A DNA stretch of 64,000 bases from Thermoanaerobaculia bacterium. GTDB lineage: Bacteria; Acidobacteriota; Thermoanaerobaculia; UBA5066. Positions 3,947-45,755 of the stretch are shown here, one piece after another. The notes under the pieces are model-generated. The model saw only the letters and a list, made by a program, of their open reading frames with translations. It was not told the origin of the DNA and did no database searches. Position 1 is the stretch's first letter. Each line of letters opens with the position of its first letter. Position numbers and translations under genes: made by a program. Location of the stretch: positions 6,209 through 70,208 of the forward strand of contig JBBQRP010000003.1 in NCBI GenBank assembly GCA_038214715.1. Direction: 5' to 3'.

Positions 3947-3949
3947 AAA

Positions 3950-3982: not shown

Positions 3983-4013
3983 GCGCGGCTCGCGCGGGAA
4001 GACCCGCCGTCGA

Positions 4014-5078
4014 CTAGAGGATGACGCCCTTCAGGGGAACCTTCACGTCGGCCTTCGCCTTGTCCGTCGTCTTGATGAGGAGCTCTCCCTCGAAAACGCC
4101 CTTCTTGATCTTCTGGTCGACCGTGAGGACGACCTGCACGCGCGACTTGTCCACGGGGACGATCTCGGCCGAGATGCCCGGGACGTTCGTCTCGGCCTTC
4201 GTGACGGTGAACGTCGGCGCCTGCGCGTTGTTGTTCACGATCATCACGTTGCGCTTCACGGCGTCGCCCTTCGGGTCGAAGTTCCCGAAGTTGATCGAGA
4301 TCGGCGTGACGGAAACCGCGGGTTTCACGAAGCCCGAGAGCGGGATCTCGATTTCCGGCTGCCTCTTGACGCCGGTCGCGACCTTCACGTTGCCGCCGAG
4401 AATCCCCTCCGGCGCGTCGGCCGCCGCCGTCAGCGTGACCTTCCACTGGTTCGCATTTTTGTCCTTGAGAAGCTCCTTCTCGGGGACCTGCGAGAGCGTG
4501 GCCTTCAGGAACGTGTTCGGGGTCTCGACCTTCGACGGCTTGAACTCAGCCTCGTCCGACACGAGGATGACGTCCGACGACGCGGCCTCGCCCGAGAGGG
4601 CCGTGATCCGGAAGAACCCGTACGGGAGGGCCTCGACGAACGGTTTCACGGTCGCCGAAAGGAAGAGAGTCCTCTGCGGCGTCGACGGGTCGTCCGTCAT
4701 GAGGAGCGCCGTCTTCGAGATCGGGCCGGAGAAGTTCTTCGTGTCGACCGTGAGGGTGACCTTGCCCTCGGCCCCCGGCTTGATGACCCTGTCGAACTCC
4801 GGCACCGTGCAGCCGCAGGACGGCTTCACGTCCGTCACGTGGAGGTCGGACTTCCCGGTGTTCTTGAGCACGAACACGTGCTTGATGGGCTCGCCCTTCG
4901 GAACGGTGCCGACGTCTTTCCGATCTTCGACGACGACGAGCTTCGGTCCGGCCGCGGAGGCGGCGTCGGTGGCCTTGGCGGGAGCCTGCGCGACGGCCAT
5001 CGGCGCTCCGGCCGCGGCGAGGACCCCTGCCGCACCGAACGCGAGAACCTTCCGGAGAGAGAATTTCGGGAACATCAT
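4014..5078 (-). CDS. DUF1573 domain secreted protein (354 aa)
   Basis: Start MMFPKF is preceded by AGGAGG. Signal peptide present. The KPSCGCTVPEF motif is typical of DUF1573. The upstream 59 codons of the track ORF were rejected. Confidence 0.65.
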   Translation of the reverse strand: MMFPKFSLRKVLAFGAAGVLAAAGAPMAVAQAPAKATDAASAAGPKLVVVEDRKDVGTVPKGEPIKHVFVLKNTGKSDLHVTDVKPSCGCTVPEFDRVIKPGAEGKVTLTVDTKNFSGPISKTALLMTDDPSTPQRTLFLSATVKPFVEALPYGFFRITALSGEAASSDVILVSDEAEFKPSKVETPNTFLKATLSQVPEKELLKDKNANQWKVTLTAAADAPEGILGGNVKVATGVKRQPEIEIPLSGFVKPAVSVTPISINFGNFDPKGDAVKRNVMIVNNNAQAPTFTVTKAETNVPGISAEIVPVDKSRVQVVLTVDQKIKKGVFEGELLIKTTDKAKADVKVPLKGVIL

Positions 5079-5262: not shown

Positions 5263-6066
5263 TCAGCTCTTCGACGGGTCCTCTGCGGCTTCCGCCTCGA
5301 CCGTCACGGCCAGGGCTCCCACTCGCTCGATCCGGACTTCCACGTTCTGCCCGGCCGAAAGAGGCCCGACCCCTTCGGGGGTACCCGTGAGGATGACGTC
5401 GAGTGGCTCGAGCGTCATCGCCGACGAGATCCACGCGACGACCGCGCCGACGTCGAAAATCATTTCGCTGGTCCGCGCGGACTGCTTCACGGCGCCGTCG
5501 ACCAGCGTCTCGAGAAGAAGGTCTTTCGGGTCAACGTCCGTCTCGAGCGCCGGCCCCAGGGGGCAGAACGTGTCGAAGCCTTTCGCGCGCCACCACTGTC
5601 CGTCGCACTTCTGGAGGTCGCGCGCCGAGACGTCGACGGCGCACGTCACGCCCGCGACGACCTCCCGCCACGCATCCTTGGGGACGTGGCGGGCGCGCCG
5701 GCCGATCACGAGCGCGAGCTCTCCTTCGTAGTCGACCCGCGCGCTCGCCCGGGGCAGGACGACGATTCCCCCGTGCGGGACGAGCGCCGAAGGCGCCTTC
5801 AGAAACACGAGCGGCTCCCTCGGAACCTCGTTGCCGAGTTCCTTCGCGTGCGCCGCGTAGTTCCGCCCGATTCCGAGGATCTTCGTCGGAACGGCCGGCG
5901 GCAGGATGTGCGCTCCGCGGCGGGGAAACGGCGGACCCGACCGCTCGACGTTTCCCTTCGCCTCCCACGGCGCTCGGGAGAGAGGGACGAGAGCGTCTCC
6001 CTCGGGGACGGCCCACGTGTCCCGGCCCTCGTGCCTCACCCTCAAGACTCTCACGCGTCCTCCCAT
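5263..6066 (-). CDS. Fumarylacetoacetate hydrolase (FAH) family protein
   Basis: The C-terminal 267 aa of track ORF 5263..6798 carry FAH motifs (YEGELALVIGRRAR...MIFDVGAVVAWISSAMTLEPLDVILTGTPEGVG). ATG at 6066 gives MGGRVRVLRV. The upstream part of the ORF is Arg-rich artefact. Confidence 0.8.
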   Translation of the reverse strand: MGGRVRVLRVRHEGRDTWAVPEGDALVPLSRAPWEAKGNVERSGPPFPRRGAHILPPAVPTKILGIGRNYAAHAKELGNEVPREPLVFLKAPSALVPHGGIVVLPRASARVDYEGELALVIGRRARHVPKDAWREVVAGVTCAVDVSARDLQKCDGQWWRAKGFDTFCPLGPALETDVDPKDLLLETLVDGAVKQSARTSEMIFDVGAVVAWISSAMTLEPLDVILTGTPEGVGPLSAGQNVEVRIERVGALAVTVEAEAAEDPSKS

Positions 6067-6968
6067 TCTTCGGGGTCGAGAGTTCCCTCGAAAACAACCC
6101 GCGCGTCGCCGCCGAGCGTCACGGCGCGCGCGACCTCGCCGTCGCGTTCGAATCCGATCTCGAGGGTCTGGCCCGAACGCGTCGCGACCGAGACAGGCGG
6201 CGCGGCCCTCCCGAGGGCGTTTGCCGCGACGGCGCACGCGACCGCCCCGGAGCCGCAGGCGAGGGTCTCGGTCTCGACACCGCGCTCGAAGGTTCGAATC
6301 GCGAGCCGCGAGCTCGAGAGCACTTTCACGAAGCTCGCGTTCGCGCCGTCCCTCATCGCAGGATGGTGGCGGTGAGGCGGGCCGAGGGCGCCGAGATCGA
6401 GCGCGTCGAGGTCCACGCCTTCCTTCACGAAGAGGACGAGGTGCGGGACCCCGACGAGGAGCGCGAGTGCGTCGCGCTCGAGTGTGAGCCCCGGCGGGTC
6501 GAGGCTCGGGACGGCGCGCCCGACCGCCACGGGCTCCGGCAAGGCGAGCGTGACGCGCCCTTCCGGCGAAATCCGCGCTCCCACCGCGCCCCAGCCCGTG
6601 AGGACGACGGTCTCCGGTCCCGCGAACCCCCGGAGAACCGCAAATCGCGCGGCGCAGCGCGTGCCATTGCCGCAGAAGCGGCCCACCGAGCCGTCGGCGT
6701 TCCGGTAGTCCGCCAGGACGCGTGACGCGGAATTCCCCGCCCGTTCCGGTGCCACGAAGAGAACGCCGTCCGCGCCGACGCCCGTGCCGCGCCGGCACAG
6801 CTTCCGGATCGCGGCGATCTCCCGCTCTCCGGCCTCGACGCGTTCCCCGAAAACGAGGAAGTCGTTTCCCGCGCCGCTCATCTTCGTGAACGAAAGAGGC
6901 AACGCGCCGAGAGGCGACGGGCGGGGTCCCGCACCGCGGGTAGTCGCCGGTCGGCCGGGACCTGTCAT
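6051..6968 (-). CDS. dapF: Diaminopimelate epimerase
   Basis: FTKMSGAGNDFLVF matches the DapF N-terminus (MQFSKMHGLGNDF), and the catalytic-Cys region LACGSGAVA is present. ATG at 6968 has a GAAGGGAG SD and an ATGA overlap with the upstream gene. Alternative starts are TTG 6902 and ATG 6881. Confidence 0.85.
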   Translation of the reverse strand: MTGPGRPATTRGAGPRPSPLGALPLSFTKMSGAGNDFLVFGERVEAGEREIAAIRKLCRRGTGVGADGVLFVAPERAGNSASRVLADYRNADGSVGRFCGNGTRCAARFAVLRGFAGPETVVLTGWGAVGARISPEGRVTLALPEPVAVGRAVPSLDPPGLTLERDALALLVGVPHLVLFVKEGVDLDALDLGALGPPHRHHPAMRDGANASFVKVLSSSRLAIRTFERGVETETLACGSGAVACAVAANALGRAAPPVSVATRSGQTLEIGFERDGEVARAVTLGGDARVVFEGTLDPEEWEDA

Positions 6969-20083: not shown

Positions 20084-20110
20084 GAGCAGAGGGTCACGAT
20101 GCCACGTTTG

Positions 20111-21241
20111 TCAAGTCTTTGCCCGGGCCCTCGCGAAAAGAGCACCCGGCAGGACCGTCACGAGACCCTCCATCTCGAGGTGGACGAGGGCCGCGGAAAG
20201 ACGGGCCGCGTCGAGCCCCGTGGCCGCGAGGAGCGTCTCGGCGTCCTTCGCCTCCTCGGCGTCGAGCGAAGCGAAAAGAGCGCCGGCGTCCTTCGGAAGA
20301 TGGGCGGGAACGGTCGGCTCCTCGCGCTCCGGAATCGCCCGCCGGAGATGCCGGCGATCCTCTTCCGGCAGCTCCTCGAGGAGGTCGTCGGCGTGCCTCA
20401 CGAGGATCGCGCCATCCTTGAGGAGCGCGTTCGATCCGGCGGCTCCCGGCGAGAGAATCGAGCCCGGAACCGCCGCGACGTCGCGGCCGTACCCCGTCGC
20501 GCAACGCGCCGTGATGAGGGAGCCGCTCTTCTCCGCGGCTTCGACGACGCAGACGATGCGCGAGAGGCCCGCGATGATGCGGTTCCGAACGGGAAAGTTC
20601 CAGGGCTCAGGTTCCGTTCCCATCGGAAACTCCGAGACCGCGGCCCCCGCCAAGAGCAACGCCGCGAGCAGATCCTTCTGCTCCGGCGGGTAACAGACGT
20701 CGACGCCGCAGCCGAGGACGGCGACGGTCCGTCCGCCCGCGTCGAGCGCGGCGCGGTGGGCCGCGGCGTCGATGCCGCGGGCGAACCCCGACACGACGGT
20801 CACGCCGGCCTCGGCGAGAGAGGCCGCGAGCGACCGAGCGGCGTCGAGACCCGCCCGAGACGCCCGGCGGGCTCCGACGACCGCGATCGCCGGGCCCTCG
20901 GGAAAGGGAAGACCGCGCGCGAAGAGGACTGGCGGGGGATCGTGAATCTCGCGGAGAAGCGCGGGGTAGCCAGTGTCCGTCAGGAAGACGACGCGCGTCC
21001 CGGACTCTTCGAGCCGCCGCGCGTCGTCACGAAGCCCCGGGTCTTCGCCGTCTTCGAGCAGAGGCTCGACGACCGCGCGGTCTTCGCCGGCGAGCCGGGC
21101 GGCCTCTTCCGGGGACAGTGCACGGACAGCGGCGGGCGACCCGGCCGAAAGAAGGAGCGCTCGGAGGGCGCGGGCGGCCCGGCCGCGCCCCTTTCGGGCC
21201 CAGAGGAGTCCTGTAAGGGCATCGTTCAGCGCGCTGCTCAA
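20111..21241 (-). CDS. dprA: DNA processing protein DprA (Smf)
   Basis: Rossmann-like DprA core (VVSGFARGIDAAAHRAALDAGGRTVAVLGCGVD...FPVRNRIIAGLS). TTG start is preceded by GAGGGG. The upstream 228 codons of the track ORF are artefact. Confidence 0.85.
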   Translation of the reverse strand: MSSALNDALTGLLWARKGRGRAARALRALLLSAGSPAAVRALSPEEAARLAGEDRAVVEPLLEDGEDPGLRDDARRLEESGTRVVFLTDTGYPALLREIHDPPPVLFARGLPFPEGPAIAVVGARRASRAGLDAARSLAASLAEAGVTVVSGFARGIDAAAHRAALDAGGRTVAVLGCGVDVCYPPEQKDLLAALLLAGAAVSEFPMGTEPEPWNFPVRNRIIAGLSRIVCVVEAAEKSGSLITARCATGYGRDVAAVPGSILSPGAAGSNALLKDGAILVRHADDLLEELPEEDRRHLRRAIPEREEPTVPAHLPKDAGALFASLDAEEAKDAETLLAATGLDAARLSAALVHLEMEGLVTVLPGALFARARAKT

Positions 21242-21289
21242 GCGGCACCCCTCTTGCTCAGGCCAAAGACCTTGAAACCGGTGTCTATA

Positions 21290-21904
21290 ATGCCCGACCT
21301 CTTCGTGACGTGCCGCCGTCGACCCACCGCCGCGACGCTCGTGGCTCTCGCCGCCGCGGGATCGATCGCGTGTTCGTCGAGCTCGTCGCGGAACGCCGTC
21401 ACGTGGAAGGCCGAGAACGCCTACGGAAGCCAGATGGCCCGAAAGGGGTTCTGGCGGGAGGCACTCTTCCGCTACGAGAAGGCCGCGGCGCTGCACCCCG
21501 ACAACCCGGAGGTTCAGAACAACCTCGGCGTCGCATACGAGAGCGTAGGGGAGACTTCGCGCGCCCTCGCGGCCTACAAGAAGGCGCTCGAACTCGCGCC
21601 GCAGGACTCGAAGATCAAGCGCAACTACGCGCGATTCGCCGAGTACTACACGTCGGTGCAGCGCGCGTCTTCCCTGCCCGCTCCGTCGAGCTCCAGCCCC
21701 GCGATGCGTCCGTCGCCGGCGCCCGGAGCCGAATCGGGCGGCAAGCCGGGCTCCGCAGAACCTCCGCTCCTCCCGCCGGCCGTCGGCAAGGTTCCCGCGG
21801 ATTCGTCGCCCGGCTCTCCGGTTCCCGCGCCCGCGCAGAATCCGCCGTCCGCGCCGCCGGCGCCCACGCCGGGACCGGCCCCGGCGCCGCCCGGTGGCCG
21901 ATGA
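21290..21904 (+). CDS. TPR-repeat lipoprotein with Pro/Ser/Ala-rich C-terminal tail
   Basis: Lipobox AAAGSIACSS. TPR units (ALFRYEKAAALHPDNPEVQNNLGVAYESVGETSRALAAYKKALELAP). Low-complexity PAPAP tail. Confidence 0.6.
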   Translation: MPDLFVTCRRRPTAATLVALAAAGSIACSSSSSRNAVTWKAENAYGSQMARKGFWREALFRYEKAAALHPDNPEVQNNLGVAYESVGETSRALAAYKKALELAPQDSKIKRNYARFAEYYTSVQRASSLPAPSSSSPAMRPSPAPGAESGGKPGSAEPPLLPPAVGKVPADSSPGSPVPAPAQNPPSAPPAPTPGPAPAPPGGR

Positions 21905-21927
21905 GGGAACGAGGGGCGGCGACACGC

Positions 21928-22626
21928 ATGAGACGCTTCGCCTCGTCCGCGCTGGGCCTGTCGCTCGTCCTTTCGTTCGCCTGTACGGGAGGCCCGAAGG
22001 AGGTCAAGCTCCGGCTTCCGCTTCGCCCGAAGCTGGCCGTCACCGGACGCGAGCGTCTCTCGCTGGCGCCGTTCCTCGTCGCCTCGAAGCTCTCGGACAA
22101 GAAAGACGCGCCGCGATACAAGGATCTGGATCTCGATGCGGAATTCCGTCGCTACCTGGGCAAGCAGCTCGGCAAGCGCACGAAAATGACGATCGTGACG
22201 ATGCCCGCCGACGTGAGGCTTCCGTCGCAGAACCTCAAGGACGTCGGCGAGGCCGCGGAGTTCTGGCGCGGGGTGGGGGCGCGGACGGGCGCCGACATCC
22301 TCCTGACAGGCGTCGTCGACTTCCGGGTGGAAAACAAGTCCGGCTACCGGGCCGAGGAATACCGGAGCCCGATCGACAACCGGATTTACTACCGGCAGGT
22401 ACTCGTGGAATCGACGGGTTTCACGTTCGACGTGACGGTCGTCGCGCTCGACGGTCACACCGGGCTGAAGCTCTTCCAGGAGAACTTCCGCGACACGAAG
22501 GAGAAGAACCGGAGGGCCACGGACGAGCTCGTGGGCCTCTTCGAGAACCTTTTCTCCCTCGAGAACCAGCTGCTCGGCCTCTTCGTGGTGCGCGAGCGGG
22601 AGGCGAACCGGTATGTCTTCGACTAG
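21928..22626 (+). CDS. Lipoprotein of unknown function (232 aa)
   Basis: ATG MRRFASSALGLSLVLSFACTGG with a lipobox. The upstream 206 codons of the track ORF are Arg-rich artefact. Confidence 0.5.
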   Translation: MRRFASSALGLSLVLSFACTGGPKEVKLRLPLRPKLAVTGRERLSLAPFLVASKLSDKKDAPRYKDLDLDAEFRRYLGKQLGKRTKMTIVTMPADVRLPSQNLKDVGEAAEFWRGVGARTGADILLTGVVDFRVENKSGYRAEEYRSPIDNRIYYRQVLVESTGFTFDVTVVALDGHTGLKLFQENFRDTKEKNRRATDELVGLFENLFSLENQLLGLFVVREREANRYVFD

Positions 22627-25477
22627 GGCGTTTCTCGCCGCGTCCGCCGCCCTCGCACTCGCGGTCTTCGTCGCGCCCGAGGCGCGATCCGCCGGACAGA
22701 ACAAGATCGTCTACGACAAGTTCGACTGGCAGATCTACCAGTCGACCCACTTCGACATGTACCACTACTCGCGCGAGCGCCAGACGCTCCAGAAAGTCGT
22801 GTCGATGGCGGAGTCGGCCTACGACGAGCTCTCGCGCCGCCTGAACTACCAGATCCCGAAGCGCATCCCGATCATCTATTACGCGACGCACGCGGAGTTC
22901 GAGCAGAACAACATCGAGCTCAACTTCATCCCCGAGGGCGTTGGCGCGTTCGCCGAGCCCGCCCGGAACAGGATGGTCCTGCCGATCGACCTGCCGGACG
23001 AGAAGCTTCAGTCGCTCATCCAGCACGAGCTCACGCACGTCTTCCAGTACGAGATCCTGTTCGGCGGAAGGCTCGGCCGCGCCCTCTCGGCGAACGTCCC
23101 GACCTGGGTGGTGGAGGGCATGGCGTCCTACTTCGGAAACGACGAGGACGACAAGGACCGCATGTACCTGAGGGACGCTGTCAACCAGGACCTCATCCCG
23201 CCGATCACGAAGGTCAACATCGAGGGCTACCCCGCGTACCGCTACGGCCACGCGGTCTACGACTTCATGGAAGCGGAGTGGGGCAAGGACGCCGTCCGCG
23301 ACTTCGTCTTCGAGTACCGCTCGTTCCTCGGGCGCGACGTCGCGGTCGCGCTCCGGCGCGCATTCGAGATCCAGCCGGATGACTTCGACCTCAAGTTCCG
23401 GCGGTACCTGAGGCGCAAGTACCTCCCGCTCCTCGCGATGAAAGGCGAGGCGAGCGAGTACGGCGAGCGCTTCCGCGTCGGGCCCTACGGCCGCGAGTCG
23501 TTCGAGATCGGCGCCGCGCCGTCCCCCTCCGGCGAGTTCGTCGCCACCCTCACGACCGTGAAGGGCGATGTCGACATCGCGCTCCTCTCGGTGAAGGACC
23601 GCAAACTCTACAAGAACCTTTCCGCCGGCCACACGACGAAGTACGAGTACATCGTCGGCCAGTACCTCACGGCGGGCCCCGAGAGCGGCCGCGACCTCTC
23701 GTTCGCACCGGACGGCGACCGCATCGCGGCCTTCGGCCGGCAGGAGCGCGGCCGCAAGCTGCTCATCTTCTCGGCGCGCGGCGGCGGGCTCCTCGAGCGC
23801 ATTTCCGTGGCACCGGACGTCCCGCTCTCACCCTCCTGGTCTCCGGACGGGAACGCGATCGTCTTCTCCGGCATCGAGGGAAACAGCCGCGACATCTTCC
23901 TCCTCGACATGAAGTCGCACGCCGTGAGGAACCTCACGAACGACGTCGAGTTCGACGAGGCGCCCGTCTTCTCGCCGGACGGGAAATGGATCTACCACTC
24001 CAAGATCGTCGGCGGCTTCTCGAAGATCGTGCGTTTCCCGCTCAGCGACCCGTCCAAGAACGAGCAGGTAACATGGGGCGACAGCAACGACGAGGACCCG
24101 GCCTTCTCGCCGGACGGCAAGCGTCTCTACTACGCGTCGTCCCGCGGCGGCATCTTCAACATCTACGGCCAGGATCTCGCGACGGGCGAGATCGTGCAGT
24201 ACACCGACGTCATCGGAGGAGCGTTCGGACCCGCCGCGTTCACGGGTCCCGACGGGCAGGAAAAGGTCGTCTTCTCCGGCTTCCAAGGCCTTCGCTTCCA
24301 GGTCTACGTGGCGGACGCGAAAAAACCCTTCAGGAAGCTCGACGAGCGCGCGCTTCCGCCCGCGCCCGTCAAGACCGGCGGCACGGCCGGCTTCGTACCC
24401 GCGGTGGAGGTCGCCGTCGACCCCGAGAAACTTTCGCGGCCGAAGTTCAAGCTGTTCCTCGACAACGCACAGGTGCTCGCCGGCATCAATTCGGACCAGA
24501 CGTTCGTCTCGCAGATCGTCCTCTCGTTCTCGGACTACCTCGGCGATCACCGCTCGTTCTTCCAGTTCGACTCCGTCTCGACGTTCTCGAACTTCCGAAT
24601 CGGCTACTTCAACATCGCGAACCGCTTCCAGTGGGGCCTTCAGCTCTACGACGACCGCCAGTACTTCTACGGATACAACTACGAGACCGGCGATTTCACG
24701 CGCGACCAGCGCATCTCGCGCGACACGGGCCTCTCGCTGTCGGGCTACTATCCGATCTCGAGGTACACGCGCCTCGAGGGGAACATCGGCTTTCTGAGCC
24801 GCTCGCTCGACGTGCCCTACTCGATCTCGAACCTCGACGGAACGCAGTCCGTCTTCTACGATCCCAGGTCGGACAACGTGCCGACGGCCGGAGTCGGCTT
24901 CTCGTACGACACGACCCGTTACGCGAGCTTCGGCCCTTACGGGGGGAAGCGGCTCGACCTGAACGTCCAATACACGCCGTCCTTCAAGGCTGGCGAGACC
25001 ACGCTCTCGATCGACTCGTTCGTCGACGCCCGCCTCTACGTTCCGCTCTCCCGGCGGGTACTCATCGCGATGCGCGGGTTCGGCGGCTATTCGCGGGGCT
25101 CGGCGCCGACGGTCTTCTACTTCGGCGGCCTCGACACGCTACGGGGCTTCGACTACCGGAGCATTATCGGGAACAACGTCTTCTACGTGAACACGGAGCT
25201 CCGGTTCCCGCTCATCGACGTCCTCTCGACGCCGGTCCTGCAGTTCGGCGGCATTCGCGGCCGGATCTTCCTCGACGTGGGCGGCGCCTGGCTCAAAGAC
25301 CAGGCGTTCCAGTTCTGGCAGGACGGCCGCCTGAAGGACGGCCACGCCTCCTTCGGCGGCGGATTCACGGCGTACTTCCTCGGCCTCCCCTGGAACGTGG
25401 ACACCGCCAAGCAGTGGGACTTCCGCACGTCCCTGTCCGACTGGCAGACCACGTTCTACGTCGGGGCGACCTTTTAG
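22613..25477 (+). CDS. Secreted multidomain outer-membrane protein: N-terminal HExxH metallopeptidase (Peptidase_MA-like), PD40/TolB-type beta-propeller, C-terminal Omp85 (bacterial surface antigen) beta-barrel
   Basis: Signal peptide. HELTHVFQYE...WVVEGMASYFG zinc-peptidase motif. Repeated SPDG/FSPDGK PD40 motifs. C-terminal region with alternating aromatic beta strands (LRFPL, GGIRGRIFLDVGGAW), ending in a C-terminal Phe. Confidence 0.8.
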   Translation: MSSTRAFLAASAALALAVFVAPEARSAGQNKIVYDKFDWQIYQSTHFDMYHYSRERQTLQKVVSMAESAYDELSRRLNYQIPKRIPIIYYATHAEFEQNNIELNFIPEGVGAFAEPARNRMVLPIDLPDEKLQSLIQHELTHVFQYEILFGGRLGRALSANVPTWVVEGMASYFGNDEDDKDRMYLRDAVNQDLIPPITKVNIEGYPAYRYGHAVYDFMEAEWGKDAVRDFVFEYRSFLGRDVAVALRRAFEIQPDDFDLKFRRYLRRKYLPLLAMKGEASEYGERFRVGPYGRESFEIGAAPSPSGEFVATLTTVKGDVDIALLSVKDRKLYKNLSAGHTTKYEYIVGQYLTAGPESGRDLSFAPDGDRIAAFGRQERGRKLLIFSARGGGLLERISVAPDVPLSPSWSPDGNAIVFSGIEGNSRDIFLLDMKSHAVRNLTNDVEFDEAPVFSPDGKWIYHSKIVGGFSKIVRFPLSDPSKNEQVTWGDSNDEDPAFSPDGKRLYYASSRGGIFNIYGQDLATGEIVQYTDVIGGAFGPAAFTGPDGQEKVVFSGFQGLRFQVYVADAKKPFRKLDERALPPAPVKTGGTAGFVPAVEVAVDPEKLSRPKFKLFLDNAQVLAGINSDQTFVSQIVLSFSDYLGDHRSFFQFDSVSTFSNFRIGYFNIANRFQWGLQLYDDRQYFYGYNYETGDFTRDQRISRDTGLSLSGYYPISRYTRLEGNIGFLSRSLDVPYSISNLDGTQSVFYDPRSDNVPTAGVGFSYDTTRYASFGPYGGKRLDLNVQYTPSFKAGETTLSIDSFVDARLYVPLSRRVLIAMRGFGGYSRGSAPTVFYFGGLDTLRGFDYRSIIGNNVFYVNTELRFPLIDVLSTPVLQFGGIRGRIFLDVGGAWLKDQAFQFWQDGRLKDGHASFGGGFTAYFLGLPWNVDTAKQWDFRTSLSDWQTTFYVGATF

Positions 25478-25646: not shown

Positions 25647-26465
25647 GTGAGGAAGGTCACCTGGAGACCGTCTCCGGGTCCGCGGGCTCATAATCCCCTC
25701 CCCGTGCGCGTTCGCGTCCTCGGAGCCCATGGCGGCTCCTCGCCGTCCCATCGTCAGACGTCGTTCCTCGTGAACGGAACACTCTGTGTGGACGCGGGTG
25801 CGGTCACGGACGCACTCTCTCTCGCCGAACAGTCGATGGTCCGCTCGGTCCTCGTGACACACGCGCACATGGACCACGTGGCCTCACTCCCGTTCCTCGT
25901 CGAGAACATCTTCGGCGGCACCGCCCCGCCCCTCGAGATCGTCGCACCCGAAGAGGTGCTTGCCGCCCTGAAGAAACATCTCTTCAACGACGCGCTCTGG
26001 CCCGACTTCTCGCGCCTTCCGAGCGACGCCGTGCCCGCGGTCACGTTCCGTCCGGTTCCGATCGGCAAGCCGTTCACCGTGTCGGGATTGACCGCGACGG
26101 CGTTCCCCGTCTCCCACGTCGTTCCGACGTTCGGATACATCCTCGAAGACAAGGGCGGGAGCATCGTCTTTTCGGGCGACACCGGCCCGACGGATGCGCT
26201 GTGGGCCGCCGCGCGCGCGCGAAAGGACGTGAAGGGCGTCTTCGCGGAGTGCTCGTTTCCGAACTCCATGCAGCATCTCGCGGACGTCTCGAAACACCTC
26301 ACGCCGGCGAGCCTGAAAATGGAGATCGCGAAATTCCCGCCGGGAGCGCCGATCCACCTGTACCACATGAAGCCCCCGACCCTCGAAAAGCTGAAGGCCG
26401 ACGTGCTCGCGCTCTCGAACCCGCGCGTCACGATCCTGAAGGACGGGGACGAGCTGACGTTCTAG
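25647..26465 (+). CDS. MBL-fold metallo-hydrolase, class II 3',5'-cyclic-nucleotide phosphodiesterase-like
   Basis: VLVTHAHMDHVASLPFLV resembles the class II PDE signature HxHLDH..G/S. The downstream FSGDTG block is present. GTG start at 25647; an alternative GTG is at 25704. Confidence 0.6.
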   Translation: MRKVTWRPSPGPRAHNPLPVRVRVLGAHGGSSPSHRQTSFLVNGTLCVDAGAVTDALSLAEQSMVRSVLVTHAHMDHVASLPFLVENIFGGTAPPLEIVAPEEVLAALKKHLFNDALWPDFSRLPSDAVPAVTFRPVPIGKPFTVSGLTATAFPVSHVVPTFGYILEDKGGSIVFSGDTGPTDALWAAARARKDVKGVFAECSFPNSMQHLADVSKHLTPASLKMEIAKFPPGAPIHLYHMKPPTLEKLKADVLALSNPRVTILKDGDELTF

Positions 26466-32569: not shown

Positions 32570-35167
32570 CTACTCGCCTGCTCCGAGAGGAGGCGGCGCG
32601 TCCGCCTCGGGCTCCTCGTCCCGGTCCCCGAGCTTCGCGAGCTTGGCCACGGCCACGACGCGGTCTCCCTCCGAAAGGTCGATGAGCTTGACGCCCATCG
32701 CGGCTCGCCCCGTCTCGCGCACGTCCGCGACCGCGAGACGGATGAGGATTCCCTGTTCGGTGATGACGAGGAGATGGTCGGTCCCGGTGACGGACGAAAT
32801 GCCGACGACCGGCCCGTTCTTCTCGCTCACGCGCACGTTGATGACGCCGGACCCTCCCCGCGTCTGGTGCCGGTACTCGGCGACGTCGGTCCTCTTGCCG
32901 TAACCTTTCTCCGTGACCGCGAGGAGCGTACCGGTCTCCTCGACGAGGTCCATCTCGACGACGACGTCGTCGCCCTTGAGCGCGATCCCTTTCACGCCCG
33001 TGGTGTCCCGTCCCATCGCGCGCGTATCCGTCTCGGAGAACTTGATTCCCATCCCGAGTCGCGTTCCGAGGAACACCTGCCGTGTGCCGTCCGTGATCTG
33101 CGCCGAGAGAAGCTCGTCGCCCTCCTCGAGCTTGATCGCGATGATGCCCTTCTCGCGCGGGTTTCCGTAGGCCGAAAGAACCGTCTTCTTCACGAGGCCG
33201 CGCTTCGTCGCGAAGAGGAGAAAGCGGTCGTCGGGGAACGTTCGCGTCGTCGCCATCGCGGCCATCCGCTCGCCGTCCTCGAGCGCGAGGAGGTTCACGA
33301 GAGCCTTGCCGCGCGTCGCCGGTCCGCCCGAAGGCACGTCGTAGAGCTTCACCCAATGGACGCGACCCTTGTTCGTGAAAGCGAGGAGGAAGTCGTGCGT
33401 CGACCCGACGAAGAGGTGCTCGACGACGTCCTCTTCCTTCGTCTGCGCTCCCATGCGGCCCTTGCCGCCGCGCTTCTGGGCCCGGTAGACGGAGAGCGGA
33501 GTCGTCTTCGCGTAGCCTCCCCGGCTGATCGTCAGGACGACCTCTTCCTCGGCGATGAGGTCCTCGGCGAGGAGTTCGTTCGGCTGGGCCACGATCTCCG
33601 TCCGGCGCGGCCGCCCGAACGTGTCCTTGATCGTCGTCAGCTCGCCTCGGATGATCTCCGTGACGCGCTCGCTCCGCGCGAGGATGTCCTTGAGGTCCGC
33701 GATCGCCGTCAGGACCTCGGTGAACTCGGCCACGATCTTGTCGCGCTCGAGCCCCGTGAGGCGCTGGAGGCGCATGTCGAGGATCGCCTGCGCCTGGATG
33801 GTGTCCAGGCGGAGAAGGCCGTCGTTCGTCCGCGCGGAAGCGGACACGTCGAGGGACGTAACCGAGAGGAACGTCTCGAGCGCGGCCTTTTCGACGGTGA
33901 TTTCCTGCGTGAGGCGGGTCCGCGCTTCCTCGGGATCCTTGCTCCCCCTCACGATCGCGATGACGCGGTCGAGGTTGAAGAGCGCGATCGCGAGGCCGAG
34001 AAGGAGATGCGCGCGTTCCTCCGCTTTCCGGAGGTCGAAGATCGTGCGGCGCACGACAACCTGCCGGCGGTGGTCGAGGAAGTGGCGGAAGAGCTCCTTG
34101 AGGGGTAGGACGCGGGGCTGCCCGTCCACGATCGCGAGCGCGTTGATCCCGAAGGAGGACTGGAGCGGCGTCGCGGACAGGAGCTGGTTGAGGACGACCT
34201 GCGCGATCGCGTCGCGCTTGACGTCCACGACCATGCGCATGCCGTCGCGGTCGGATTCGTCGCGGATCGCGGAGATGCCGTCGATCTTCTTGTCGTTGAC
34301 GAGACCCGCGATCTGCTCGATGAGCCGGGCCTTGTTGACCTGGAAGGGCAGCTCCGTCACGACGATCGACTCGCGGTCGCCCTTCTTGTTCTTTTCGATC
34401 TCGGCGCGCCCACGGACCTGCAGGATGCCGCGGCCCGTCTTGTACGCGTCGACGATGCCCTGTCGACCGAGGATGATGCCGCCCGTCGGGAAGTCGGGGC
34501 CCGGCATGACCTCGACCAGGCGGGCGAGCTCGGCGTTCGGATCGTCGAGCAGGACGATCGCGGCGGCACAGGCCTCCGCGAGATTGTGGGGCGCGATCTT
34601 CGTGGCCATGCCGACGGCGATGCCCTCGGCGCCGTTCACGATGAGATTCGGGAATTTCGCGGGGAGGACGGCGGGCTCCTGAAGCGAGCCGTCGTAGGTG
34701 AGGTTCCAGTCGACGGTTTCCTTGTCGATGTCGTCGCCGAGCATCTCCTCGGCGAGGCGCGTGAGCCGGATCTCGGTGTACCGCATCGCGGCGGCCGAGT
34801 CGCCGTCGACGGACCCGAAGTTCCCCTGCCCGTCGACGAGCGGCTCGGACATCGAGAAGTCCTGCGCCATCCTCACGATCGTGTCGTAGATCGCGGCGTC
34901 GCCATGCGGGTGGTACTTGCCCATGATGTCGCCCACGAGGCGGGCCGACTTCTTGTAGGGCCGGTTGTGCCGGTTCGACTGCTCCCACATTCCGAAGAGC
35001 ACGCGCCGGTGGACGGGCTTGAGCCCGTCGCGCACGTCTGGAAGCGCGCGCCCCACGATGACGGACATCGCGTAGTCGAGATAGCTCCGCCGGATCTCCT
35101 CTTCGATGGAGACCGGGATCCTCTCCGTCGGGTCGATCGTGGGCGGCTTTTCGGGTTTGTCGGTCAC
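32570..35167 (-). CDS. gyrA: DNA gyrase subunit A
   Basis: Full-length GyrA (catalytic Tyr region, GyrA-box-containing beta-pinwheel C-terminal domain). GTG start with AGGAA SD. Adjacent to gyrB. Confidence 0.95.
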
Positions 35168-35232
35168 GTCAGTTCCTGTGTGGCGCGGAGGAGGCCCAGG
35201 GGAAACCCGGCCTCGGGTTCCCGCGGTTCATG

Positions 35233-38909
<3,677 letters not shown>

Positions 38910-38917
38910 GCGGCCGA

Positions 38918-40042
38918 CTACATCCTCATCGGCATCACGACGTAGAGGTAGCTGCGGATGCCGCCCAGTGGCTCTGCCGGGCGACCCTGGCACTGCGCCT
39001 GCTCGTCCTTCACGAAGAGGTGAACATCTTTCGTCTCAGCGGCCTCGAGAAACTGCTCGAGGTAGCGCGCGTTGAGGCGGAGGGTGACGGCCGCGCTGTC
39101 GTATGCGATGGCGATTTCCTGGGACCCGTCTCCGACCTCCTGGCTCTCGGACGAAACGACGAGCGCGTCCTTCTGAAAGGCGAGGCTCACCGCCTTCATG
39201 CGATCGCCCGAGAGAAGCGCGATACGCCGCACGGCGCCGAGAAGTTCTTCGCGTGGGACGACGGCCTTCTTGTCGTTTTCCTTGCTGATGACCTTCTCGT
39301 AGTCGGGGAAGCGCCGCTCGTCGAGTTTCGAAAAGAGCCTGCGGCTGCCGACGGAGAAGCCGATGTGGTTCGTCCCGCGCATGATCGTGACGGGCGCGTC
39401 GTCCGCCGCGTCCAGCTTTCCGAGCTCGTCGAGAATCTTTTTCGAGACGAGCACGGGCTCGAACCCGGCCTCCGCCTTCGCCCCCTCGACCTCGACGAGG
39501 GCCAGGCGGTGCCCGTCCGTCGCGACCATCTCGACGGTCCCACCCTTCGTCTTGAGAAGCGCTCCCTGAAGCTGGAGGCGCATCTCCTCCGTGGAGACGG
39601 CGAACCGGACCTTGTCCACCATTCTGCGGAGGGCCCCGAACGACAGTGTCAGTGTCGGACCGCCGGCCGGCTCGGGCCGGGTCGGATAATCCCCGGCCGG
39701 AAGTCCGTTCAGCCGGATCCGGAGCTTCGGTTCCTTGCACTCGAGGGAGACGTGATTGTTCTCGAGCACCTTGAGCCTGATCTCCGCATTCGGCGGAAGC
39801 TCGCGCACGACGTCATAGAGCCGCCGGGCCGGCGCCGTGACCGCTCCCGAACTCTTGAGCGTGACCGGCGCGATTTCAGACACGAGGGTCGTGTCCAGGT
39901 CCGTCGCCGTCAACGTGAGTGCGCCGCTCTTGCCCTCGAGCAGAACATTCGTGAGGATTTGATGCGTCGTTCTCTTCTCGACGACGCCCTGAATCAGGCT
40001 CAGTTCACGAGCCAGGATCGAGGCCGGAAGTGTCAGCTCCAC
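38918..40042 (-). CDS. dnaN: DNA polymerase III beta sliding clamp
   Basis: Three-domain beta-clamp similarity. GTG start with AAGGAG SD. Confidence 0.95.
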   Translation of the reverse strand: MELTLPASILARELSLIQGVVEKRTTHQILTNVLLEGKSGALTLTATDLDTTLVSEIAPVTLKSSGAVTAPARRLYDVVRELPPNAEIRLKVLENNHVSLECKEPKLRIRLNGLPAGDYPTRPEPAGGPTLTLSFGALRRMVDKVRFAVSTEEMRLQLQGALLKTKGGTVEMVATDGHRLALVEVEGAKAEAGFEPVLVSKKILDELGKLDAADDAPVTIMRGTNHIGFSVGSRRLFSKLDERRFPDYEKVISKENDKKAVVPREELLGAVRRIALLSGDRMKAVSLAFQKDALVVSSESQEVGDGSQEIAIAYDSAAVTLRLNARYLEQFLEAAETKDVHLFVKDEQAQCQGRPAEPLGGIRSYLYVVMPMRM

Positions 40043-40286
40043 GACTTCTCCTTACATCTTGAATCTTATCATTTACAGGTACTCAAAAGGAGCAGAAGTA
40101 GTAGGCAGGTACCAAAAGTGCAATCGCTGATAAATATCTCAAAAACAACCCTTTATGACTCTCGCTGGTCTGTGGAACTCTTTCCGCTGCCCTGTGTATA
40201 CAAAGACCGACAGAACACTCCGGGGGGACTTTTGCTCGTGTCTCCTGCGGGGTTTTCCGGAGGGCACGGAAAAGGGGTGGAAAAGG
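40043..40286. other. Candidate oriC: AT-rich unwinding element plus degenerate DnaA boxes between dnaA and dnaN
   Basis: Positions 40055-40160 are about 38% GC in a 70% GC genome. TGTGGAACT, TGTGTATAC and GGTGGAAAA are each within 2 mismatches of TGTGGATAA. Confidence 0.5.
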
Positions 40287-41621
40287 TCATCGAAACTGGG
40301 CGAGAAAGCCCGCCAAAAGGCGGTCCAGCTCCGGATCTTCCTCTCTCAGGGCGGCGATTTTTCGGATGGCGTGGAGGGCGGTCGTGTGGTGCTTGTCGGA
40401 GAAGAGCCGCCCGATCTCAGGGAGTGAAAGGCCGGTCGCTTCCTTGAGGACGTACATCGTCACCTGCCGCGCGTACACGATCGGACCCCTCTTCGTGCGC
40501 GCCCGGAGCTCGGCGGGCTTGAGACCGTAGTGCGCCCCCACGAGCTTGAGGATCTCAGCGGGGGACGTCGCGTGCTCCTCCGCCCGGAAGACGTCCTTCA
40601 ACGCTTCCCGGCCGAGATCGAGGGAGATCGCCTCGCCTTTCAGGGAGGCGAAGGCGACGACCCTGTTGAAATACCCTTCGAGCTCGCGAATGGACGACTT
40701 GATCTTCCCCGCGAGGAAGAAGGCCACGTCGTCCTCGAGGACAACCTGGTTTGCCTCGGCCTTCTGCCTCAGAATCGCGACCTTCGTCTCGAAGTCGGGG
40801 AGCTGGATGTCGACGATGAGCCCGCCCTCGAACCGGCTCTTGAGCCGATCCGTGAGGCCCGGAATCTCGCGGGGGGGGACGTCGGACGAGAAGACGATCT
40901 GGTTGCCCTCGTCGTAGAGCGCGTTGAATGTGTGGAAGAGCTCGTTCTCCGACGCTTCCTTCCCGACGACGAACTGCACGTCGTCGAGGAGCAGGAGGTC
41001 TGCGGCGCGGAATCGCTGGCGAAGGCTCTCCATCTTGTTGAAGCGCACGCCGAGAACGACCTCGTTCACGAAGTTTTCGGAGGTCAGGTAGATGACCTTC
41101 TCGCCGGGCCGGCGGGAGAGGCGGCGGTGTCCGATCGCCTGCATGAGGTGGGTCTTGCCGAGGCCCGTCCCGCCGCAGACGAACAGCGGGTTGTACTGCC
41201 GCGAGGTCTGGTCCGCCACGCGCAGCGCCGCCGCGTGCGCGAGGCGGTTGGACTCGCCCGTCACGAAGTGTTCGAAGGTGTAGGCCGGATTCAGCCCACC
41301 CACGCGCCGCCGGGGCTCGGCGGGCACCTTCTGCGGGTGGATCGCGGAGCGGTATTCGCCGTCGGCGCCGAAACGGATCTCCCGGGTACCGGCTCCCGCG
41401 AGGCGGGCAGCCTCGGCAATCTGGACGGCGTAGGCCTCGGGGATGTAGTCGACGAAAAGCGGCGTTCTCACCTGGACGAAGATGGCCTCCGGTGTCTCCG
41501 ATTTCTGCCGCGAATCGCGGAACCAGGAATCGAACTCACGCTCGTCCACGCGCGTCTTCAGGTGCTCGAGAATCTTCGCCCAGGTCGACGTCTTTTCCAC
41601 AGGATCTCCACCGCTGTGCAT
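40287..41621 (-). CDS. dnaA: Chromosomal replication initiator DnaA
   Basis: AAA+ Walker A GGTGLGKTHL. C-terminal DnaA-box-binding HTH (GRLFSDKHHTTALHAIRKI). ATG at 41621; an alternative GTG at 41600 has a GGAGA SD. Confidence 0.95.
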   Translation of the reverse strand: MHSGGDPVEKTSTWAKILEHLKTRVDEREFDSWFRDSRQKSETPEAIFVQVRTPLFVDYIPEAYAVQIAEAARLAGAGTREIRFGADGEYRSAIHPQKVPAEPRRRVGGLNPAYTFEHFVTGESNRLAHAAALRVADQTSRQYNPLFVCGGTGLGKTHLMQAIGHRRLSRRPGEKVIYLTSENFVNEVVLGVRFNKMESLRQRFRAADLLLLDDVQFVVGKEASENELFHTFNALYDEGNQIVFSSDVPPREIPGLTDRLKSRFEGGLIVDIQLPDFETKVAILRQKAEANQVVLEDDVAFFLAGKIKSSIRELEGYFNRVVAFASLKGEAISLDLGREALKDVFRAEEHATSPAEILKLVGAHYGLKPAELRARTKRGPIVYARQVTMYVLKEATGLSLPEIGRLFSDKHHTTALHAIRKIAALREEDPELDRLLAGFLAQFR

Positions 41622-41708
41622 ATCGGTTTGCGGCGTCGGGGAGGGGGATGGTACCAGCGCCCGGCCGGGCCGGCCAGAGGGAGAAGAGGGAGCGGGAGCA
41701 GCCACGCG

Positions 41709-41745
41709 GTTGACAGGAAGCGCAGGACCCCCGAGAATCCTCGTC
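41709..41745 (+). promoter_or_regulatory. Candidate sigma70-like promoter for rpmH (TTGACA - 17 bp - GAGAAT)
   Basis: TTGACAggaagcgcaggacccccGAGAAT lies about 25 nt upstream of the rpmH ATG. Confidence 0.35.
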
Positions 41746-41767
41746 CCCTTCGGAGGGTTTCTTCACC

Positions 41768-41963: not shown

Positions 41964-42371
41964 ATGCACGCACGGGTCAGCACCGCGTCCGCTCCGCCGG
42001 GGGGTGAGGCCCTCCCGCGGGAGCGTCGCATCGGCGCCCGCCGGGATTTCCTCGCGGCTTACGAGAAGGGCGCCAGGCTGCACGGGCGGCTCGTCGTGGT
42101 CTTCGCGCTCCCGCGGCACGAGGGAGGCCTACGGCTCGGCGTCACCGCGACGCGGAAGTCGGGAGGCGCCGTCCTCAGAAACCGCGCGAAGCGGCGCCTG
42201 CGCGAGATCTTCCGGCGCTGGCGCGCGACCGCCGGCGGCCAGGCGATCGACCTCGTGGTGAACGTTTCCGCGCGCGCGACCCGCGCGCCGTTTCGCGTCC
42301 TCGACGCGGAAGTCACGGGCCTCCTTTCGCGAGCGGCCGAAGGCGTCGCGCGAGCGGCCGGCCCGAGATGA
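41964..42371 (+). CDS. rnpA: Ribonuclease P protein component
   Basis: [13 protein letters not shown]...[27 protein letters not shown] motif. The start may be a few codons downstream. Confidence 0.85.
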
Positions 42372-42604
42372 GCTCGACGCTGGACACTCCGGCGCCCGCC
42401 CGCGTCGTCGCGGGACTTTTCGGCGCCTACAAAAAATTCGTCTCGCCCCTGCTGCCGCCCGCCTGCCGCTTCACGCCCACGTGTTCGGAGTACGCGCGCG
42501 AGGCCGTCACGCGCCACGGCGTTTCACGCGGCCTCGCGCTCGCCGTGCGGCGGCTCGCGCGCTGCCATCCGTTCCATTCGGGCGGCAACGACCCCGTTCC
42601 CTGA
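42368..42604 (+). CDS. yidD: Membrane protein insertion efficiency factor YidD
   Basis: [24 protein letters not shown]...[14 protein letters not shown]. Confidence 0.85.
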
Positions 42605-42621
42605 TCGTCAGAGGAGAGCCC

Positions 42622-44340
42622 TTGGAAACCAAGCGTCTCGTGATCGCCTTCGCCTTGTCGGCCGCCGTCCTGATCGGCTGGACGATCGTTTTCCCGCCCC
42701 CGAAGCAGCCGCAGCCGGTGGTACGACCCGCGGCCGCGGCGGGCACTTCCGCGGGCGCTCCGGCGACGGGTGTGCCCGCCACGGCGGCCACGGCGTCCAC
42801 CGCGCCGGCGGCCTCGAGCGCTTCGCCGGCGTCCGCTCCGAAGAGCGGGACCGCGCCGGCCGCGCCTCGCGTGAACGTGCCGCCGATCGAGGCCGCGACG
42901 GAGACGACGGTCGAAGTGCGGAGCCCGCTCTACACCGCACGCCTCTCGAACGAGGGCGGGGTCCTCAAGTCGTTCGTCCTGACGCAGCATCGCGACGGGG
43001 CGGGGAAGGCCCTCGACCTCGTGCGCCAGGGGGCGCCGTTTCCGGGCGCCACGCTCGCGCTCGATCCCGCGGACGCGTTCCTCGCGCGGGCCGCGAAGGC
43101 ACGGTTCGCCGTCGAAAAGGAGAGCGGGAACGGCGTCACGACCGTCCGCTTCCGGTATCGCGAGGCGAACGGGGACGGGCTGACGCGCGTCTACGTCTTC
43201 CGCGACTCGTACGTCGTCGCCGTGAAAGTCGAGCGCGAAGGCGCTCCCGGCCCCGTCGGCCTCGTCCTCGGACCCGGCCTCGGCAACCCCTCCGCAGGCG
43301 AGCTCGCGAGCCGCTACACGAAGCCCGGCGCGACGATCACGCTGAACGCGTCGTCGTCGGTCGACCGCAAGGCGAAGGACGGGCTCAAGCAAGCGGAAGC
43401 CAGGGGCACGGGGCTCGTCGCCGCGGGCCTCGAGGACAACTACTTCCTCACGGCGTTCCTGCCTTCGGGGAGTGCCGCGGTGACGCTTCGGCCGGTGACG
43501 CTCGGGGGCGGCCAGTCCGCGGAGGGCACGAAAACCGCGGCCCCGGACGCCGAGAGCGAGGTCGTGCTGTCGGGTACGGGCGCGCTCCAGACGGACGTAT
43601 TCCTCGGTCCGAAAGAGCTCGCCGTTCTCGAGAAGACGCGACCCGGGATGGACAAGCTCATCGACTACGGGTGGTACGCGATCCTCGTGAAGCCGCTCCT
43701 GTGGGGACTCAAGGCAATCCACCGGGTCGTCGGGAACTGGGGCGTCGCGATCCTCCTCATCACGGTCGTCATCAAAGTTCTCCTCTACCCGCTCACGCAC
43801 AAGCAGCTCGTCTCGATGAAGAAGATGAGCGTCCTGCAGCCGAAGGTCGAGACGATCCGCGCGAAGTGGTCCGGGAAGATCAAGCAGGACGCTTCGGCGC
43901 GCGTGAAGATGAACGAGGAGATGATGGCGCTCTACAAGCAGGAGGGCGTCAACCCGGCGGGCGGCTGCCTGCCGCTCCTCCTGCAGATGCCCATCCTCGT
44001 GGCGTTCTACAACCTCCTCGCGCACTCGATCGAGCTTCGCCACGCGCCGTTCATGCTCTGGATCACGGACCTTTCCGCGAAGGACCCGTACTACGTCACC
44101 CCGATCCTCATGACCGCCACGATGTGGCTCCAGCAGCAGATGACGCCGACGGGCGGAGACCCCGCGATGCGAAAAGTCCAGAACGTCATGCCGCTCGTGA
44201 TGGGGTTCCTCTTCAAGGACGTCCCGTCGGGCCTCGTCCTCTACTGGCTCATGCAGAACATCCTCACGATCGGCCAGCAGCTGCTCCTCAACAGGTTCAC
44301 GGACCTCGGCCCCGCCTCGATGAAGCCGAAGGCCGCCTGA
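42622..44340 (+). CDS. yidC: Membrane protein insertase YidC
   Basis: TTG start (METKRLV) is preceded by GAGGAG. N-terminal TM segment, periplasmic domain, C-terminal 60Kd_IMP core (GGCLPLLLQMPIL, LYWLMQNILTIGQQ). Confidence 0.9.
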   Translation: METKRLVIAFALSAAVLIGWTIVFPPPKQPQPVVRPAAAAGTSAGAPATGVPATAATASTAPAASSASPASAPKSGTAPAAPRVNVPPIEAATETTVEVRSPLYTARLSNEGGVLKSFVLTQHRDGAGKALDLVRQGAPFPGATLALDPADAFLARAAKARFAVEKESGNGVTTVRFRYREANGDGLTRVYVFRDSYVVAVKVEREGAPGPVGLVLGPGLGNPSAGELASRYTKPGATITLNASSSVDRKAKDGLKQAEARGTGLVAAGLEDNYFLTAFLPSGSAAVTLRPVTLGGGQSAEGTKTAAPDAESEVVLSGTGALQTDVFLGPKELAVLEKTRPGMDKLIDYGWYAILVKPLLWGLKAIHRVVGNWGVAILLITVVIKVLLYPLTHKQLVSMKKMSVLQPKVETIRAKWSGKIKQDASARVKMNEEMMALYKQEGVNPAGGCLPLLLQMPILVAFYNLLAHSIELRHAPFMLWITDLSAKDPYYVTPILMTATMWLQQQMTPTGGDPAMRKVQNVMPLVMGFLFKDVPSGLVLYWLMQNILTIGQQLLLNRFTDLGPASMKPKAA

Positions 44341-45754: not shown

Positions 45755-45755
45755 A

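Follow-up and report, generated by a model that had tools for sequence, protein, structure and literature searches.

We analysed a window of 64,000 nucleotides from the genome of a Thermoanaerobaculia bacterium (Acidobacteriota; assembly GCA_038214715.1, contig JBBQRP010000003.1, positions 6,209 to 70,208 of the forward strand), centring on a plus-strand open reading frame (ORF; 22613..25477) that encodes a protein of 954 aa plus stop and joins a peptidase domain, a PD40 β-propeller and an Omp85-type β-barrel in one polypeptide. This ORF is the last gene of a three-gene, translationally coupled unit. Reading from the N terminus, the fusion protein consists of a Sec signal peptide read from the sequence (aa 1-27, ending ...VAPEARSA before GQNK; 22613..22693); a gluzincin catalytic domain of clan MA, Peptidase_MA_2 type (aa 28-292; 22694..23488), recognized through AlphaFold2 (AF2) modelling, Foldseek, profile matches and the Pfam family PF13485; a six-bladed TolB-like PD40 propeller (aa 293-580; 23489..24352); a low-confidence linker of 34 residues (aa 581-614; 24353..24454), in which the predicted local distance difference test score (pLDDT) is below 50 at 589-612; and a 16-strand Omp85-type β-barrel with a terminal Phe (aa 615-954; 24455..25474). 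Because the signal peptide is without a Cys and thus lacks a lipobox, the protein is not a lipoprotein; the cysteine count of the entire 954-aa sequence is 0, and the mature N terminus, G28-x-N30-K31, is invariant or nearly so in homologue alignments.

The ORF is intact, with an ATG start and no internal stops, and shows the typical coding bias that marks the coding frame (GC3 0.91 versus GC2 0.45, in a window of 69% GC). An identical copy of the protein is present in one NCBI assembly, and hundreds of colinear homologues of 945-1000 aa, with 53-93% identity, are encoded in Acidobacteriota metagenome-assembled genomes (Thermoanaerobaculia, Holophagales). When cluster representatives were searched exhaustively, 1110 proteins were recovered at E<=1e-30, covering several phyla, and more than 100 of the best 150 representatives match end to end, at 27-53% identity and with lengths of 925-1170 aa. 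Because more than 100 representatives align in this way, the ORF is a single gene, as originally read, and a frameshift or two-gene artefact is ruled out by the colinear full-length homologues. One 90%-identity cluster (P0349) mixes ~945-aa members of the family with ~290-aa Gemmatimonadota proteins named "diaminopimelate epimerase", which points to an artefact of the clustering or, in some assemblies, to a fusion called between neighbouring genes.

Profile searches with the fusion protein itself exceeded the Pfam cut-off for PD40 only (PF07676, 1.8e-21, in three stretches): Peptidase_MA_2 (PF13485) scored 17.3 bits against a cut-off of 32.4, and PF01103 gave no match at E<=1, such that the Pfam check proposed with the original prediction recovered the propeller, left the peptidase below its cut-off and did not find the barrel. 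On these hidden Markov model scores alone, the peptidase and barrel calls would therefore be only suggestive. Homologues and structure models, taken together, settle the identity of both weakly scoring domains. Across 50 diverse full-length homologues, Pfam detected PD40 in 49, Peptidase_MA_2 in 32 (best 5e-18) and PF01103 in 30 (best 4.7e-23), and these matches, along with the AF2 models and Foldseek comparisons, bear out the three-part composition of MA-clan peptidase, PD40 propeller and Omp85-type barrel that had been predicted from the sequence; the motifs quoted in that prediction (HELTH, WVVEG, SPDG-type repeats, LRGF and the terminal Phe) are all present.

The HELTH zinc-binding and catalytic motif of the peptidase domain (H138, E139 and H142 within aa 138-142; 23024..23038) is invariant in the homologue alignments and is followed by WVVEG (aa 165-169; 23105..23119), in which E168, the predicted third zinc ligand, and G169 are invariant, and by the likewise invariant Y209 (23237..23239), a candidate transition-state-stabilizing Tyr. 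In every alignment, down to ~25% identity, H138, E139, H142, E168, Y209, R120 and D188 are unchanged, and HExxH is kept, around position 130-160, in 108 of 109 full-length representatives. PF13485 is matched by 22 of 24 diverse N-terminal domains, and a profile of these 24 domains, compared with the PDB, reached the cold-active M1 aminopeptidase 3cia (2.9e-5) and the collagenase ColG (6e-5). The profile alignments to 3cia and 7z5u span both HExxH and the Glu of WxxEG (WLNEG and WFDEG in the M1/M9 structures), and Y209 is aligned with the Tyr of GVPYVKG in 3cia; we take it to be equivalent to the catalytic Tyr383 of LTA4H. Modelled alone in a second AF2 run with 71 diverse sequences, the N-terminal domain reached a pLDDT of 87 and a predicted template modelling score (pTM) of 0.85, and the Foldseek neighbours of this model are almost exclusively gluzincins (M1, M9, M61), among them IRAP, ERAP2, PepN, LTA4H, tricorn-interacting factor F3, collagenase G and M61. 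Thus, the HExxH region has the peptidase fold anticipated for it, and the combination of HExxH and a downstream Glu on a thermolysin-like fold places it in clan MA(E).

The catalytic fold, HExxH, the downstream WxxEG Glu and the conserved Tyr are common to this domain, the M1 aminopeptidases (including factor F3) and the M9 collagenases. Compared with M1, however, the fusion protein has the catalytic domain only (~265 aa), without the M1 N-terminal β-domain and C-terminal helical domain; GAFAE (111-115) stands at the place of the M1 exopeptidase signature GxMEN, such that the specificity may be that of an exo- or an endopeptidase, and the M1 family PF01433 was matched by just 1 of the 24 N-terminal domains, at 0.007. 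The sequence family is Pfam Peptidase_MA_2, neither M1 nor M9, and when the N-terminal domain was searched by itself, nearly all of the homologues recovered were fragments of the same family. The peptidase is expected to be active, because the catalytic set of H138, E139, H142, E168 and Y209 is complete and strictly conserved.

Downstream of the peptidase domain, five propeller motifs of the form S/A-P-D/S-G lie at aa 304, 365, 410, 454 and 499, a sixth, GPDG near aa 545, was recognized by eye in the translated sequence, and AF2 yielded a confident six-bladed propeller at 298-579. Foldseek matched the model to TolB at 5e-13. In NCBIfam, the TolB propeller was matched at 2e-26, below the family cut-off, and the equivalog score was 92.8 versus 343, with only profile positions 168-355 covered; the protein is therefore not a TolB of the Tol-Pal system, only the propeller part of the equivalog being matched. 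In contrast to TolB, whose N-terminal α/β domain is not in the polypeptide, the fusion protein is membrane-embedded and encoded outside any tol-pal operon. No POTRA family is among the Pfam matches of the fusion protein or of the 50 diverse homologues, in agreement with the original prediction, and a cryptic POTRA in the linker at 581-614 is ruled out by its length of only 34 residues. The protein thus departs from the classical Omp85 definition, with no POTRA and only the low-confidence linker before the barrel.

At the C terminus, AF2 built a 16-strand barrel at 615-953, with BamA and TamA as the best structural matches (BamA barrels at 7e-12 in Foldseek), confirming the Omp85 barrel that had been predicted there. 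The NCBIfam profiles Omp85_fam (3.5e-8) and BamA TIGR03303 (5e-8) matched through their C-terminal end, below the cut-offs, and ShlB scored 22.1 against a cut-off of 22.7; for TIGR03303 the score was 31.7 versus 297, covering the barrel end only, and the protein is thus not a BamA, which has five POTRA domains and a barrel. Two Omp85 features are present: a C-terminal 16-stranded barrel of the BamA/TamA/TpsB type and, between strands 11 and 12, the L6 motif (V/I/L)RG(F/Y). The latter is represented by the hallmark LRGF (aa 843-846; 25139..25150), located in a 26-residue loop (829-854) and found in most distant representatives too; G839 is invariant and R844 at least 90% conserved in the homologue alignments. 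The protein ends in ...GATF, and the terminal residue is Phe, Tyr or Trp in nearly all of the 109 full-length representatives.

The lengths of the strand connections bear on the orientation of the protein. The loops after strands 5, 7, 11 and 13 (L3, L4, L6 and L7) comprise 15, 19, 26 and 17 residues, respectively, the loop after strand 11 being L6 because LRGF lies within it, whereas the alternate connections, on the side where strand 1 starts, comprise 2-11 residues. Because these loop and turn lengths fit the canonical Omp85 orientation, the start of strand 1 and the module tethered to it would be periplasmic. In the modelled topology, the peptidase-propeller module most likely faces the periplasm. 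In comparison with BamA and TamA, the protein lacks POTRA domains and its extracellular loops are shorter. In Omp85 proteins such as BamA and FhaC, the L6 loop normally sits in the barrel lumen. The N-terminal 580 residues form two compact globular domains, the propeller and the α/β peptidase, not a slow-folding β-helix.

The other two genes of the unit encode exported proteins. A small gene (21290..21904, plus strand) encodes a 204-aa tetratricopeptide repeat (TPR) lipoprotein with the lipobox GSIAC and approximately two TPR motifs at aa 40-120, recognized from the translation and TPR Pfam matches, and the next gene, here called lipoX (21901..22626, plus strand), encodes a 241-aa exported protein, the translation of which shows a lipobox, LSFAC, in the Thermoanaerobaculia bacterium genome. 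The lipoX ATG overlaps the TPR stop codon (ATGA, 4 nt), the lipoX stop overlaps the start of the fusion gene by 14 nt, and both overlaps recur in a homologous locus. The original prediction described the protein as flanked by two lipoprotein genes. Two such genes, one of them TPR-containing, are indeed present, but their overlapping positions on the same strand put both of them upstream, translationally coupled with the fusion gene and not flanking it. The suggestion that they are partners of the fusion protein is strengthened by this coupling and by their conservation in related loci.

A larger version of the TPR gene, the plus-strand ORF 20099-21904 (601 aa), was considered and ruled out: only the last 204 codons are the TPR gene, and the rest lies over dprA. 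This ORF and one of 604 aa on the minus strand (20111-21925) are overlapping long ORFs and high-GC artefacts; in homologous loci, dprA comprises ~340-370 aa on the minus strand and the short TPR lipoprotein gene is on the plus strand. In the Thermoanaerobaculia bacterium genome, the TPR lipoprotein carries an ~80-residue, low-complexity tail rich in Pro, Ser and Ala (aa ~125-204), which is absent from the 111-153-aa TPR homologues of other lineages. NCBIfam detected generic TPR similarity only (PilW, Tgl). For lipoX, no curated family was matched above threshold; in Pfam, FlgT_M was found in 12 of 13 orthologues (best 9e-8) and a weak LptE match in 6 of 13, and a lipoX profile reached FlgT structures at 0.012. 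A lipobox-like Cys is present in 12 of 81 lipoX orthologues, the remainder having an ordinary signal peptide, and after the cleavage site the orthologues show a strongly conserved mature N terminus, (E/Q)VKL(K/R)LPL(K/R)PKL.

We compared 84 related loci; the genome scan was seeded with 12 closer sequences, and the 80 loci kept were all from Acidobacteriota, other phyla being sampled locus by locus through nine distant loci. Among the related loci, the TPR gene is found immediately upstream in 78 of 84 and lipoX in 81 of 84, those without a match including contigs cut near the main gene. The other neighbours vary, with the MBL-fold hydrolase present in 55 and topA in 47 of the 84. Beyond these related loci, a Poribacteria genome (L086) has the same trio, namely, a TPR protein of 153 aa, a 235-aa protein overlapping the start of the fusion gene, and the fusion gene itself, and so does another distant genome (L090), with a TPR protein of 111 aa and a 226-aa protein encoded ahead of the fusion gene; in both, the flanking genes are unrelated. 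In a third distant genome, a TPR-like gene lies upstream of the homologue and a gene for a 248-aa lipoprotein directly downstream. The TPR proteins are homologous across phyla (35-40% identity, E 1e-17 to 1e-20). The trio-bearing distant homologues are 25-30% identical to the fusion protein, as remote as the partnerless ones, and the association is therefore either old or repeatedly lost.

Locally, the gene order is topA and dprA on the minus strand, followed on the plus strand by the TPR lipoprotein gene, lipoX, the fusion gene and the MBL-fold hydrolase gene (25647..26465, plus strand). Pfam matches of the hydrolase are to class-II cAMP phosphodiesterase and Anti-Pycsar Apyc1-like families, and the gene is lost in a whole subclade. 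Beyond it lie a gene without assigned function, enoyl-CoA hydratase, pdxT, pdxS and a GntR/MocR regulator on the minus strand. The window covers the chromosomal origin region, with gyrA (32570-35227), gyrB (35233-38439), dnaN (38918-40051) and dnaA (40287-41762) on the minus strand, yidC (42262-44340) and mnmG (45747-47684) on the plus strand, and the ATP synthase alpha and beta subunit genes (52818-56775). The Omp85 gene is thus ~15 kb from dnaA, in a core housekeeping neighbourhood.

Several distant loci show arrangements of a different kind. In two Ignavibacteriales-like genomes, L085 (1-8129) and L092 (1-6192), the homologues of which are 54% identical to each other, tamB (~1500 aa, AsmA/TamB_N) is followed by RNase R and then by the Omp85 homologue, an order that could be a matter of lineage synteny or could hint at a partnership with TamB. 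In L093, a 310-aa protein with PQQ_2-type β-propeller matches is encoded directly downstream of the homologue on the opposite strand (5994-6926, minus strand); BamB belongs to the same Pfam family. In a Zixibacteria genome (L087) and the related L091, where the homologues are 46% identical, aroA (EPSP synthase; 3626-4891 and 1730-2989, respectively) lies directly upstream, and neither the TPR gene nor lipoX is present.

The original prediction regarded a protease and propeller attached to an Omp85 barrel as an undescribed arrangement. However, the Omp85/TpsB superfamily has been split into ten subfamilies (Heinz and Lithgow 2014, Front Microbiol 5:370, PMC4104836), one of which, WD40-like Omp85, is defined by PF07676 repeats and a PF01103 barrel without POTRA, with the architectures given in Table S2 of that work. 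Table S3 reports, for each WD40-like member examined, structural matches to a BamA or TamA barrel at 99.7-100 and to TolB at 99.9-100, together with a "best aminopeptidase hit" to 1z5h (tricorn-interacting factor F3), 4kxd, 4fgm or 3qnf with a confidence of 98.7-99.4; the accessions include H1XQ58, D0MEQ5, D5CSQ4, J1SNQ0, A9FGN9, B4UC98 and E8WN57 (PMC4104836). In the same study, the WD40-like, Metallo and noNterm subfamilies all lack POTRA, the Metallo subfamily is defined by PF00149 and is unrelated to the WD40-like one, and the WD40-like subfamily is likened to a BamA-BamB fusion, the main text treating the propeller alone (PMC4104836). The metalloprotease, WD40-like and patatin-like Omp85 subfamilies have been described as conserved but uncharacterised (Hanson et al. 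2024, PMC11116518); we found no experimental study of any WD40-like member, our literature searches having turned up just the 2014 paper and passing citations. NCBI names for the homologues are "BamA/TamA family outer membrane protein", "peptidase MA family metallohydrolase" and "PD40 domain-containing protein".

In the fusion protein, PF07676 repeats precede an Omp85 barrel, POTRA is lacking, and an aminopeptidase-like domain lies at the extreme N terminus. Given this identical architecture and the spread of homologues across phyla, it appears to belong to the WD40-like Omp85 subfamily, the members of which are likewise from scattered phyla. No Thermoanaerobaculia sequence could be identified in the 2014 set, and Heinz and Lithgow mention neither the conserved catalytic residues nor the two upstream partner genes.

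We give slightly better than even chances to the protein being a component of an outer-membrane-anchored, periplasm-facing peptidase complex, within the WD40-like Omp85 family, with a role in envelope turnover. After Sec export, the protein would insert into the outer membrane, its 16-strand BamA/TamA-type barrel serving mainly as a membrane anchor, and the 34-residue tether would hold a periplasm-facing module in which an M1/M9-like gluzincin peptidase is packed beside the TolB-like propeller. The propeller would most likely be a substrate-binding or gating platform, because PD40 propellers act in this way in tricorn protease and S9 peptidases. The TPR lipoprotein, lipoX (in most lineages expected to be soluble in the periplasm) and the fusion protein probably form an outer-membrane-tethered periplasmic peptidase complex. 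On the inner side of the outer membrane, the complex would probably turn over envelope proteins or peptides or control their quality, a role comparable to that of BepA at BAM. BepA (M48 and TPR) shares with the present system the theme of a periplasmic zinc protease with TPR elements at an Omp85 protein, but its peptidase family is unrelated and it is soluble and separate, with no barrel fused to it; the likeness is an analogy of function, in envelope quality control.

Several observations weigh against this interpretation. The fusion protein itself reaches the Pfam cut-off for neither the peptidase nor the barrel, and the full-length AF2 run, based on 40 close homologues, reached a pTM of 0.42, with residues 1-160 below pLDDT 50, so that the placement of the domains relative to the barrel is not informative. 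The partner genes are absent at 6 of the 9 distant loci examined and are therefore not universally required, and the cross-phylum similarity of lipoX is weak (33% over 96 aa, E 1e-4, in a small database). In some phyla, lipoproteins are displayed at the cell surface, such that lipoprotein partners alone are no proof of a periplasmic site. Moreover, we infer orientation, activity and complex formation, as we do the physiological substrate, and the first three for the family as a whole.

A quite different location for the enzyme follows from the original view of the protein as a type Vd-like autotransporter, in which the barrel would export its own peptidase-propeller module for external protein degradation and nutrition, or for release. 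An N-terminal enzyme covalently joined to an Omp85 barrel without POTRA would be compatible with such a surface protease, the 34-residue linker could in principle span the pore, and many of the carrier lineages are likely protein degraders. We nevertheless consider it quite unlikely. Judged by the loop and turn lengths, strand 1 begins on the periplasmic side, the conserved LRGF loop would normally fill the Omp85 lumen, lipoX has no more than a plain signal peptide in most lineages, and the gene resides in a housekeeping region near oriC, not in a secretion or virulence locus. In the sole precedent, PlpD, the patatin domain remains in the periplasm; ATP-independent passage of such a folded, globular domain through an Omp85 barrel that is closed has been argued to be highly unfavourable, and true passengers are slow-folding β-helices secreted during barrel assembly (PMC11116518), unlike the 580 residues of compact propeller and α/β domain found here. 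In both PlpD and the fusion protein, an enzyme precedes a 16-strand Omp85 barrel and probably stays anchored in the periplasm instead of being secreted, but PlpD combines a patatin lipase with one POTRA and forms homodimers, whereas the present protein has a zinc peptidase and a propeller; neither a patatin nor a POTRA match was obtained for it, in contrast to the type Vd composition of patatin, one POTRA and barrel.

The barrel could also be more than an anchor. If it were a working Omp85 machine, inserting or translocating clients like BamA, TamA or TpsB, the peptidase would mature or clear these clients, and the propeller, TPR lipoprotein and lipoX would stand in for POTRA and the Bam lipoproteins. 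This we regard as rather unlikely, even though the barrel is closest to BamA and TamA, the L6 motif and the terminal aromatic residue are kept, the TPR lipoprotein partner is reminiscent of BamD and pilotins, tamB lies two genes upstream of the homologue in the two Ignavibacteriales-like genomes, and the comparison with a BamA-BamB fusion has been drawn (PMC4104836). A POTRA domain is lacking, conserved client genes are absent beside the homologues at the loci examined, and the TPR protein comprises just two or so repeats, with only generic similarity; RNase R intervenes between tamB and the homologue, an arrangement observed in one clade only; and the strict conservation of the full catalytic site points to proteolysis as the core function and not an accessory activity. 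A more speculative variant, to which we attach a distinctly low probability, would make the three-gene unit a previously unrecognized outer-membrane proteolytic machine, in which the Omp85 barrel would be no passive anchor: with its lateral seam it would capture outer-membrane proteins that are misassembled or unwanted and deliver them to the attached peptidase, a "reverse BAM", or it would let peptides pass across the membrane. Finally, the HExxH domain might be a binding module only, within a non-catalytic scaffold that, like TolB-Pal, provides a structural link in the outer membrane. TolB is the closest match of the propeller, and lipoX has matches to an FlgT_M/LptE-type fold, which presumably also describes the TolB N-terminal domain, so that lipoX and the fusion protein could together mimic a whole TolB. 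Such a scaffold is highly improbable: the invariance of H138, E139, H142, E168 and Y209 down to 25% identity, with HExxH in 108 of 109 representatives, is the pattern of an active enzyme, and the TolB equivalog score of 92.8 is far under the cut-off of 343.

The three-part architecture was already catalogued in 2014 and is not a new class of secretion system. The non-POTRA Omp85 subfamilies have been named in the literature as open targets, and with PlpD being a periplasmic lipid-homeostasis enzyme, the role of other enzyme-Omp85 fusions becomes a question. To what was known of the family, the present analysis adds a clear statement of a complete and strictly conserved peptidase site, an argument from loop lengths for a periplasmic orientation, and two coupled partner genes that recur in distant phyla and may guide co-purification and genetics.

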